NCBI GenBank assembly: GCA_038231435.1
Contig: JBBRLJ010000035.1
Location: forward strand, 1 to 54,760
Direction of reading: 5' to 3'
DNA from: Planctomycetota bacterium
Lineage (GTDB): Bacteria; Planctomycetota; UBA11346
DNA length: 54,760 nt
The stretch's first letter is position 1, and each line of letters opens with the position of its first letter. Positions 20,015 through 22,014 of the stretch are shown in pieces. Made by a program: the position numbers and the translations under genes. The notes under the pieces are model-generated. The model was not told where the DNA came from. It did not search any database and saw nothing but the letters and a program-made list of their open reading frames with translations.

Positions 20015-20609
20015 GCGCGGCTCCTGCGGCGGTATCGACGCGCTGGGTCAGGACGAGATCGTTGACCTCGACTTCCTCGGCGCCGAGCCCGCGGAACCAC
20101 GCGACCAACTGCTCCGAACTCGCACGCGCCGAGATCGGCAGCGCCAGGGCGAAGGTGTCGTCCGACAGGCGCGGGTGCATCGGCTTGAACGCGGGGTTCG
20201 GGATCAGGCGGCAGGTGTGGAACGCCAGCAATAGATTGGCGAGCGCCCCAATCAGCAGGCCGGTCTCGAGCGTCACCACCACGAACAGCTGCCAGGTGTG
20301 GAACGGCTTGCCGCCGTAGACCATCGGGAAGCTCTCCACCTGCTGGAAGTACTGCATGTGGTAGGCGACGATGAAGAACACCACGCTGACCGCGAACACG
20401 CCGCGGCCGATCCAGCTGCGCTCGAGGCCGAGGATGGGCTCGATGCCGTGGACCGGGTAGGGCAGGTACGCCTGGATACCGGTGTGGCCGGCTTCGCGCG
20501 CGGAGGTGGCGGCGATCTTGAAGGCCTGCGCGTTGCGCCAGTAGCCTGCGACGTACGGGACCTCGGGCGTGGCGGAGGGGCTGGGCGGGGCGTTCACGTG
20601 ATCAGGCAT
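20007..20609 (-). CDS. actD: Alternative complex III subunit ActD (DUF3341-like)
   Basis: YLPYPVHG, GGKP, two TMs, SDD.F; position after actC. Confidence 0.88.
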   Translation of the reverse strand: MPDHVNAPPSPSATPEVPYVAGYWRNAQAFKIAATSAREAGHTGIQAYLPYPVHGIEPILGLERSWIGRGVFAVSVVFFIVAYHMQYFQQVESFPMVYGGKPFHTWQLFVVVTLETGLLIGALANLLLAFHTCRLIPNPAFKPMHPRLSDDTFALALPISARASSEQLVAWFRGLGAEEVEVNDLVLTQRVDTAAGAAHA

Positions 20610-22014
20610 CGGGATGGATCTCCGTGACGCCGCGGTTGGAATCGCTCGGATGCGACGCGTGCGTGCGCTGCGGCTGCAGCAGGATCGATTTGATCTCGGC
20701 GATCGAGATCATCGGGCCGACGCGGATGAAGCCCAGGAACATGGTGAAGAACATGCCAAACGAGCCGGCGAGGATGAACCAGTCCCAGGACGAGAAGGAG
20801 TAGTAGCCCCAGTTCGCGGGCAGGTGGTCGGCCTCGAGCGACAAGCAGCCGATCACGAAGCGCTCGAACCACATGCCGACGTTCACCGCTAGGGCGATCA
20901 CCACCAGCGCGGCGATGTTGCGGCGCACGGAGCGGATCCACAGGAACTGCGGAATGATGACATTGCAAGTGATCATCGTCATCCACGCCCAGGCGTGGGC
21001 TCCGAACGGGCGGTACCAGAGGAACTGGCCGCGCTCGTAGGGAGATTCGGAATACCACGCGGTGAAGAACTCGCAGATATAGACATAGGTGACGATCAGG
21101 CCGCAGGTCAGCATGATCTTCGCCAGGCGCTCGAGATGATCGATGGTGATGTACTGCTCGAACTTGAAGGCCGAGCGCAGCGGTACCAGCAGCACCAGGG
21201 CCATCGCCAAGCCGCCGAAGATGGCGCCCGAGACGAAGTACGGCGGGAAGATGGTCGCGTGCCAGCCCGGCACGTCGCCCACAGCGAGCAAGGTCGCGAT
21301 GGTCGAGTGCATGCCGAGCACGAGCGGGGTCGCGATCCAGGCGAACTGCGCGTAGGCGCGTTCGTAGTGGCGCCAATCGGAAGCGGTGCCCTTCCAACCC
21401 ATCGCCAGTGCGCCGTACACCATCTTCTGGATCGGGTTCTTGGCGCGGTCGCGGATGGTGGCCAAGTCGGGGATCAGTCCGAGGTAGAAGAAGATCACCG
21501 AGGTGGTGGCGTAGCCGGTGATGGCGAACACGTCCCAGATGATCGGCGATTTGAACTGCGGCCACAGCTCGAGGTCGTTCGGATAGGGCATCAGCCAGTA
21601 GTCGACCCACGGCCGCCCGGTGTGCAGAGCCGGGAACAGGCCGGCGACGCTGATCGCGAACACCGTCATCGCCTCGGTCGAGCGGTTGATGGCATTGCGC
21701 CAACGCTGCCGGAAGAGGAAGAGGATCGACGACACCAGGGTTCCGGCGACGGCGATGCCGATCCAGAACACGTAGGTGACGATGTAGTTTCCCCAGCCCA
21801 CCGGCGAGTTGATGCCGAAGATGCCGATGCCCTCGACGCAGTGCAGCGCGAACGCGAGGAACAGCGCGCCGGTCAAGCCGGCGGCGGTCAGGAAGGCCCC
21901 CCACCACGCCAGCGGCGGAAACTTGAACAGCGGCGCTATGATGTCGTCGGTGATCTTCGCGGCCGTGAGCTCGGGCGCCGCGGCAGTCGCCGGATCGTTG
22001 CCGATGGTGCTCAT
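20602..22014 (-). CDS. actC: Alternative complex III quinol-binding membrane subunit ActC (NrfD/PsrC family)
   Basis: RQRWR.AINR..EAMT, HTGRPW, SPIIWDVFA, PGWH.TIFPPYFV, MWFERF. Confidence 0.93.
   Translation of the reverse strand: MSTIGNDPATAAAPELTAAKITDDIIAPLFKFPPLAWWGAFLTAAGLTGALFLAFALHCVEGIGIFGINSPVGWGNYIVTYVFWIGIAVAGTLVSSILFLFRQRWRNAINRSTEAMTVFAISVAGLFPALHTGRPWVDYWLMPYPNDLELWPQFKSPIIWDVFAITGYATTSVIFFYLGLIPDLATIRDRAKNPIQKMVYGALAMGWKGTASDWRHYERAYAQFAWIATPLVLGMHSTIATLLAVGDVPGWHATIFPPYFVSGAIFGGLAMALVLLVPLRSAFKFEQYITIDHLERLAKIMLTCGLIVTYVYICEFFTAWYSESPYERGQFLWYRPFGAHAWAWMTMITCNVIIPQFLWIRSVRRNIAALVVIALAVNVGMWFERFVIGCLSLEADHLPANWGYYSFSSWDWFILAGSFGMFFTMFLGFIRVGPMISIAEIKSILLQPQRTHASHPSDSNRGVTEIHPDA

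Follow-up and report, generated by a model that had tools for sequence, protein, structure and literature searches.

An ActC subunit with replaced protonatable residues in a complete ACIII operon

Alternative complex III (ACIII) replaces bc1 in many phyla, and structural models of the enzyme rest on residues called strictly conserved. The window analyzed here, a stretch of 54,760 nucleotides from an uncultured planctomycete (genome G000), encodes an ActC for which the original prediction was that two such residues, a His and an Asp, are missing, raising the question of whether this reflects different proton coupling, a different quinone or decay. The operon contains a complete actABCDEF set followed by a monohaem cytochrome c and an aa3-type oxidase with its assembly genes, in the same order in variant and canonical relatives.

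25569..26666, minus strand: actA, five CxxCH haem motifs, kept in 18/18 variant loci (motifs, homology)
22011..25562, minus strand: actB, iron-sulfur subunit; 15 C-terminal Cys and quinone-site Tyr kept (alignment)
20602..22014, minus strand: actC, variant quinol-binding NrfD-type membrane subunit, 470 aa (open reading frame, homology, model)
20007..20609, minus strand: actD, Glu115 (equivalent to Glu122) kept in 22/22 variant loci
19145..20014, minus strand: actE, monohaem cytochrome c with one CxxCH (motif, homology)
17934..19148, minus strand: actF, second membrane subunit; the equivalent of Tyr284 is present in 21/21 (alignment)
16961..17953, minus strand: monohaem cytochrome c between ACIII and oxidase, likely membrane-anchored (sequence)
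14043..16961, minus strand: cytochrome c oxidase subunits II and I, YSHP motif (homology)
9852..13935, minus strand: haem A synthase, haem O synthase, CtaG/Cox11 and oxidase subunit III (homology)

The 15 Cys of ActB were kept in 19-20 variant loci, with one masked position. The Phe adjoining Glu115 of ActD was replaced in the 22 variant loci by Leu (19), Met (2) or Ile (1). The YSHP motif presumably marks an A2 type oxidase. Two side observations concern partner proteins. About 145 residues separate the fourth haem motif of ActA (209) from the fifth (360); the protein aligned over its full length in family relatives, and other planctomycetes aligned only to about residue 215. The haem-ligand motif of CoxI (14043-15791, minus strand; residues 430-433) was HFHM in 15 and HFHL in 2 of 17 variant loci and HFHY in 5/5 canonical sisters; the oxidase too carries a change that runs through the clade.

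The best match of ActC was chain C of 6F0K (E 6e-144), and the solved ActC sequences were 45-50% identical to the planctomycete protein. An AlphaFold model (pLDDT 79) displayed the ten-helix NrfD fold, with TM scores of 0.85-0.86 to four solved ActC. The motifs WIGIAVAGT (21739-21765) and LVLG...PGWH (21259-21324) fell within the predicted ranges, and 4/4 solved ActC aligned without gaps with His opposite Val89 and Asp opposite Leu242, as proposed. The R. marinus numbers His97 and Asp253 used below were counted within this alignment. HTGRPW, WDVFA, the TM5 His (His236) and WFERF were indeed retained. The positions of interest, with counts among the 47 proteins of the clade described below, are as follows.

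21772..21774, minus strand: Tyr81, equivalent to Phe89 of the quinol pocket; Tyr in 47/47
21748..21750, minus strand: Val89, codon GTC, equivalent to R. marinus His97 / R. castenholzii His99; Val in 47/47
21649..21678, minus strand: new polar TM3 residues Thr113 (47/47) and Ser/Asn/Gln122 (47/47), from clade comparison
21313..21315, minus strand: Gly234, equivalent to R. marinus Ser245 / R. castenholzii Ser244; Gly in 46, Ala in 1 of 47
21289..21291, minus strand: Leu242, codon TTG, equivalent to R. marinus Asp253 / R. castenholzii Asp252; Leu in 47/47
21274..21276, minus strand: Asp247 of GDVP; variable, no clade feature

The original prediction took the His and Asp as family consensus, and Table 2 of PMC8076601 places both above 95% conservation across 521 ActC. 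Both columns were also scored in 150 cluster representatives, a set that over-represents divergent and partial ActC proteins: among those covering the column, His was present in 103/122 and Asp in 122/136, and Val or Leu there in none. X2, another sample from the study that produced the window, has contigs with 0 differences across both codons.

The substitutions are fixed in a planctomycete clade

Among the 120 best ActC homologues, 46 shared Tyr81/Val89/Leu242 with the window, 73 had Phe/His/Asp and one was a chimera. The closest named relative of the window's organism was 84% identical and belongs to the same genus. A survey of the family gave ActC matches in 30/36 other genomes; the 28 full-length loci examined, including that of the window, comprised 21 variant loci in nine genera and 7 canonical loci in seven other genera. 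In 401 Planctomycetota genomes, best hits outside the family never scored as high as the family's own, and 5 further loci from outside were canonical. ActC identity was 53% across the variant/canonical split versus 67% and 76% within. The Val/Leu/Gly triple as (mostly) a genome's only ActC was seen only in this clade; no second canonical ActC was found in G000. Searches of viral contigs yielded no relative, and a scan of genome contigs with the single ActC protein yielded 3 loci only.

Phylogenetic analysis placed the variant ActC as a supported clade nested among canonical ActC. The variant genomes were also monophyletic for CoxI, CoxIII and, with weak support, ActB, but in ActA, ActE, ActF, CoxII and the cytochrome c they were not; vertical inheritance of the variant ActC is the simplest reading. 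Two apparent exceptions were set aside. P0047, with Val89 and Asp242, might pass for an intermediate and is a chimera, variant-like (88-97%) to about residue 120 and canonical-sister-like (97-100%) after 140; G027, variant by score, is canonical with a frameshift. Three observations concern other members of the family. G008 (L061, C184) carries a canonical ACIII-oxidase operon in addition to its variant operon, and G009 (L067, C333) two canonical copies. Genus g11 (G012, G025, G032) gave no matches to ActC, menB or NuoL and carries NqrB/Rnf-like genes and several ATPase c subunits; it is likely an anaerobic branch.

Further changes affect the coupling Ser and the quinol pocket

According to PMC7439408, R. 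castenholzii His99 lies 3.3 A from His246 within a mid-membrane His-His-Arg triplet, Asp252 lies 2.9 A from the quinol-site Asp171 as its hydrogen-bond partner, and Ser244 lies 2.1 A from Glu118 of ActD. The last contact is proposed to couple redox chemistry to pumping (PMC7439408, PMC5928083). In the planctomycete clade, the Arg and His247 of the Arg395-His247-His97 triplet were kept and His97 was Val in 47/47, and neither Asp253 nor Ser245 was present in any member. Of the 23 site and channel residues listed, the other 21 were invariant in 47/47 proteins. They take in what remains of both half-channels and quinol-site His139, Ser164 and Asp169 (here His131, Ser156 and Asp161).

Beyond His97Val, Asp253Leu, Ser245Gly and Phe89Tyr, about ten changes relative to the solved ActC were fixed in TM2-TM7. 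Other pocket changes were Leu166Ile and Val250Ile. In addition to the TM3 residues, polar gains included Ser/Thr/Asp262 (44/47) and Ser96 (36/47); new polar residues lie in TM2, TM3 and TM6. The GDVP Asp, which the original prediction had offered as a new acid five residues downstream of the lost one, did not hold up as a replacement: it occurred in only 6/47 clade proteins. Of the others, 40/47 carry Asp77 instead and 1/47 neither, and this exchange amounts to one switch only.

Tyr81 sits seven residues after a conserved Trp, in the register of E. coli NrfD Tyr21 and HybB Asp58, QrcD Asp70 and Wolinella PsrC Tyr23. Because the hmmsearch alignment to NrfD and HybB was weak (domain scores 2-3 bits, with HybB shifted one column), the case for Tyr81 rests on this register, by which it provides a polar pocket-channel residue of the Asp70/Tyr23 type. 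The QrcD pocket residues F63/I67/D70 are spaced as ActC W82/I86/F89; D70, which corresponds to PsrC Tyr23, is essential like the latter, and a link of this kind is reportedly missing from canonical ActC (PMC6303296, PMC13059093). The position equivalent by spacing to the second channel Tyr (QrcD Tyr110) was Ile or Val in 47/47, and the partner subunits are ActA-F and the oxidase, not those of Qrc or Psr.

The same positions vary in alphaproteobacterial ActC

Tyr81 also occurred outside the clade: 13/13 cluster representatives with this residue, from about five independent lineages, were without the His. Strict exclusion between Tyr81 and His89 was rejected, with 5 independent pairs giving p 0.0625 on a tree that excludes the chimera P0047 (p 0.031 from the tree containing it was discarded) and 6/17 plasmid loci having both residues. 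In the Bradyrhizobium-type subfamily, 120/120 members had Tyr/Asn/Asp, in which His97 is replaced by Asn and Asp253 is kept. This type was found in complete act-cox operons of Bradyrhizobium and Methylobacterium, with Ser instead of Asn in Nitrobacter. The large alphaproteobacterial subfamily with Tyr89 and Asn/Ser97 comprises L192-L194, P0137 and P0289-P0407; members of all three genera are cultured, which makes loss of His97 testable there.

Plasmids carried a second pattern. The 17 of 19 plasmid records surveyed comprised 3 of the Bradyrhizobium type, 5 of a Rhizobium type, 1 from Martelella (Tyr and His, degenerate TM5), 1 from Azospirillum (Thr, His, Leu) and 7 canonical. In 5/5 Rhizobium loci (L196, L203-L206), Tyr was present, His97 was kept and Asp253 was replaced by Leu, and a Glu had appeared four positions before it, likely a compensated shift of the acid. 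Two singleton representatives, P0188 and P0178, were without both His and Asp with core residues intact, and some degenerate ActC paralogues were without His/Asp and without quinol-site residues. P0181 and P0185, one of them named from Methylobacterium oxalidis, are degenerate ActC-like proteins in which His247 and Arg395 are lost too. Single losses in intact alphaproteobacterial operons show that neither His97 nor Asp253 is universally essential, and losses of one or the other tend to go together with Tyr81.

The membrane arm evolved faster relative to ActB than in the canonical sisters

Evolutionary rates were compared on one fixed topology of 23 genomes (18 variant, 5 canonical). The edge leading to the clade measured 0.63 for ActC and 0.55 for ActD versus 0.12 for ActB and 0.06 for ActE, corresponding to 5.1x, 4.4x and 0.5x the ActB value for ActC, ActD and ActE. 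Within the clade, rates relative to ActB and compared with the sisters were 1.74 for ActC, 1.58 for ActF, 1.33 for ActD and 1.08 for ActE (column bootstrap ranges 1.48-1.92, 1.23-1.57, 1.25-1.65 and 0.84-1.13, respectively), a contrast built on 5-7 canonical sisters and on pairs that are not independent. The bootstraps excluded 1 for ActC, ActF and ActD and included it for ActA, ActE and CoxI. Against other planctomycete ACIII, the excess was weak (ActC 1.08-1.36, ActF 0.95-1.19): little was left of it in ActC and ActD, and nothing in ActF.

Sites invariant in the sisters were counted as well. Across 20-22 variant versus 7-8 canonical loci, 39/260 were lost in ActC and 6/43 in ActD, compared with 4/288 in ActB, 3/106 in ActF, 0/46 in ActE and 8/297 in CoxI. 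These counts and the rate contrasts indicate that constraint was relaxed on the membrane arm and not on the electron wire. In five close variant pairs, the dN/dS of actC was 0.03-0.20 and below that of actB in 5/5, with dS likely underestimated at this GC content. ActC and ActD underwent a burst on the stem, followed by purifying selection.

The quinone is likely still menaquinone

The original prediction left open whether coupling or quinone specificity had changed. We found no support for the quinone part: menB exceeded the cut-off in 34/41 and menG in 35/41 genomes of the family, with variant as well as canonical genera among them, and futalosine genes in 0/41. The quinone therefore likely remains menaquinone. 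Cytochrome b of bc1 passed the cut-off in 0/41 family genomes and NuoL in 36/41. Sodium energetics was considered and rejected, with NqrB over cut-off in 0/41 and 17 pattern-caught ATP synthase c subunits (G000's is outside these 17) lacking the Na+ motif.

In the G000 assembly (88% complete), neither bc1 nor bd was found, and a single NrfD protein and a single haem-copper oxidase were present; the complex therefore likely carries the aerobic flux, this operon being the only quinol-to-oxygen route found. The genomic context suggests that the variant complex acts as a menaquinol:cytochrome c oxidoreductase. A bd oxidase was encoded in 12/28 genomes of variant genera and in 1/9 of canonical genera. 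Two other regions of G000 touch on quinones. C9 (L108:8305-12223) has a cluster in which a type III polyketide synthase lies with two kinds of methyltransferase, UbiE-like and UbiG-like, and with a likely flavin monooxygenase; the cluster is patchy in the family and could make alkyl-quinones. On C39 (L109:3239-11846), menB and a MenC-like gene adjoin ResB and cytochrome c assembly genes.

What the lost contacts may mean for proton pumping

Altered coupling, the other half of the original prediction, emerges as the most likely reading, although an inferred one. In the form that we favor, with somewhat less than even confidence, the clade has an intact ACIII that oxidizes menaquinol at a rebuilt periplasmic site and no longer pumps protons. 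Its quinol binding and electron transfer are backed by conserved ligands, and the mechanism is drawn from the published contacts. Menaquinol would be oxidized at His131/Asp161/Tyr81, where Tyr81, in the manner of NrfD/PsrC-type sites, would make up for the hydrogen bond that went with Asp253. Val89 would break the connection between the His236-Arg385 relay and the cytoplasmic half-channel and seal the latter, and Gly234 would take away the contact to the ActD Glu, the presumed trigger of pumping. Both quinol protons would exit on the periplasmic side, by way of His131/Asp161 or through the periplasmic half-channel, which is retained. Electrons would pass through ActB, ActA, ActE and cytochrome c to the aa3 oxidase. 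Proton-motive force would be made by complex I and the oxidase. As the quinol site is periplasmic, a non-pumping enzyme would still complete a chain with these two complexes, at lower yield; such a lower-yield chain with periplasmic quinol oxidation follows from redox-loop reasoning.

The three partners that were lost match the contacts in the published coupling models exactly, and their replacements are non-polar and fixed. The site losses and stem burst in ActC and ActD, the register of Tyr81 and the likely role of the complex in the aerobic flux of G000 also speak for this reading. Against loss of pumping stand the 21/23 invariant residues, the polar gains, the weakness of the rate contrast against other planctomycete ACIII, the single losses elsewhere, the bd bypass in 12/28 genomes and the QrcD equivalent of the gating Arg, which is not essential (PMC13059093). 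Proton pumping has been shown for no ACIII according to PMC13059093, so there may have been nothing to lose. This point also favors a rival that we consider rather unlikely, in which no ACIII pumps, the chief role of His97, Asp253 and Ser245 is to keep the first helix bundle together, and Tyr81 permitted a compensated repacking with unchanged chemistry. The related QrcABCD complex does not pump (PMC13059093, PMC6303296). The substitutions of His97 in the Bradyrhizobium type and of Asp253 in the Rhizobium loci fit this structural account, as does the clustering of changes on neighboring helices TM2-TM5 and, with the next alternative, the invariance of the remaining channel residues. It leaves unexplained the conservation above 95% in 521 ActC (PMC8076601, Table 2), the matching burst in ActD and the faster evolution of ActD and ActF.

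The second alternative, which we regard as unlikely, is that quinol oxidation is still coupled to protons, re-routed via Tyr81, Asn/Gln/Ser122, Thr113, Ser262 and water. All other channel residues are invariant, new polar residues are fixed in TM2, TM3 and TM6, the ActD Glu and ActF Tyr284 are kept, and the redox drop from menaquinol to cytochrome c could drive up to four protons (PMC5928083). However, the gained residues are not protonatable like His or Asp, position 122 holds three different residues, the position spaced as QrcD Tyr110 is Ile/Val throughout and the membrane arm is under weaker constraint. It is very unlikely that the site was rebuilt for another, higher-potential quinone. 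The pocket changes Phe89Tyr, Leu166Ile and Val250Ile, the UbiG-like and second UbiE-like genes of G000 and the rise of Tyr81 in Alphaproteobacteria too, which use ubiquinone, would fit such a switch; but menaquinone genes occur on both sides of the split, the UbiG-like gene adjoins the polyketide synthase and passes the cut-off in 9/41 genomes including canonical G015, and the UbiB match is under the cut-off. Sequencing error or a decaying, inactive subunit, for which the degenerate paralogues elsewhere are a precedent, is scarcely credible given the identical second sample, the agreement of 46 independent proteins, clade-fixed changes in an intact operon with intact cofactor ligands, invariant His131, Ser156 and Asp161, and the low dN/dS of actC, as the original prediction had anticipated in arguing against decay.

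A broader proposal, tentative and on balance somewhat unlikely, is that ACIII exists in two modes: a pumping mode (Phe89/His97/Asp253/Ser245) and a non-pumping mode to which a change from Phe to Tyr at the pocket base would have led several times. This clade would then be the most complete conversion, with ActD co-evolving. If so, the canonical sisters would provide a matched control, and transplanting the four substitutions would prove and locate the ACIII pump. Inert residues at the three contacts imply either that these are dispensable, which undercuts the models, or that the clade has a natural pump-off enzyme that maps the pump. The clade thus supplies specific, evolution-tested substitutions and a natural mutant for asking whether ACIII pumps at all.

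Comparison with known systems

No account of such ActC variants was found in the literature searched, which included PMC5928083, PMC7439408, PMC8076601, PMC13059093, PMC6303296, PMC8552683 and PMC11448878. The operon resembles those of R. marinus (6F0K) and Flavobacterium johnsoniae (6BTM), in which actABCDEF likewise precedes an A-type oxidase, and the ActC fold, ActD Glu and ActF Tyr are shared with the photosynthetic ACIII of Roseiflexus (6LOD) and Chloroflexus (8K9E) as well as the respiratory ones. His, Asp, Ser and Phe are present in all four solved ActC, whereas the planctomycete clade has Val, Leu, Gly and Tyr. In chain C of 6BTM, counted along the alignment, the four positions are Phe83, His91, Ser237 and Asp245; the act genes of F. 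johnsoniae are open to deletion and complementation (PMC8552683), which makes it a tractable host for the substitutions. The planctomycete complex is an ACIII whose residues fall outside the pattern that underlies the coupling models. The canonical sister genera (7 loci) have the same operon, extra cytochrome c, menaquinone genes and complex I, and similar ATP synthase c subunits, but unlike the variant clade they keep Phe/His/Ser/Asp.

The alphaproteobacterial ACIII also have Tyr at Phe89 in complete act operons, with the oxidase adjoining in loci read far enough. Each of these subfamilies lost one residue and kept Ser245, in contrast to the planctomycete clade, which lost His, Asp and Ser; the Bradyrhizobium type has an independent origin on the tree, and the Rhizobium type is outside that tree. 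Like NrfD, PsrC, HybB and QrcD, the variant ActC has a polar residue at its quinone-pocket base. It differs from them in its ACIII sequence and partners, in that the cytoplasmic uptake chain of QrcD is not rebuilt, and in direction, which is likely that of quinol oxidation.
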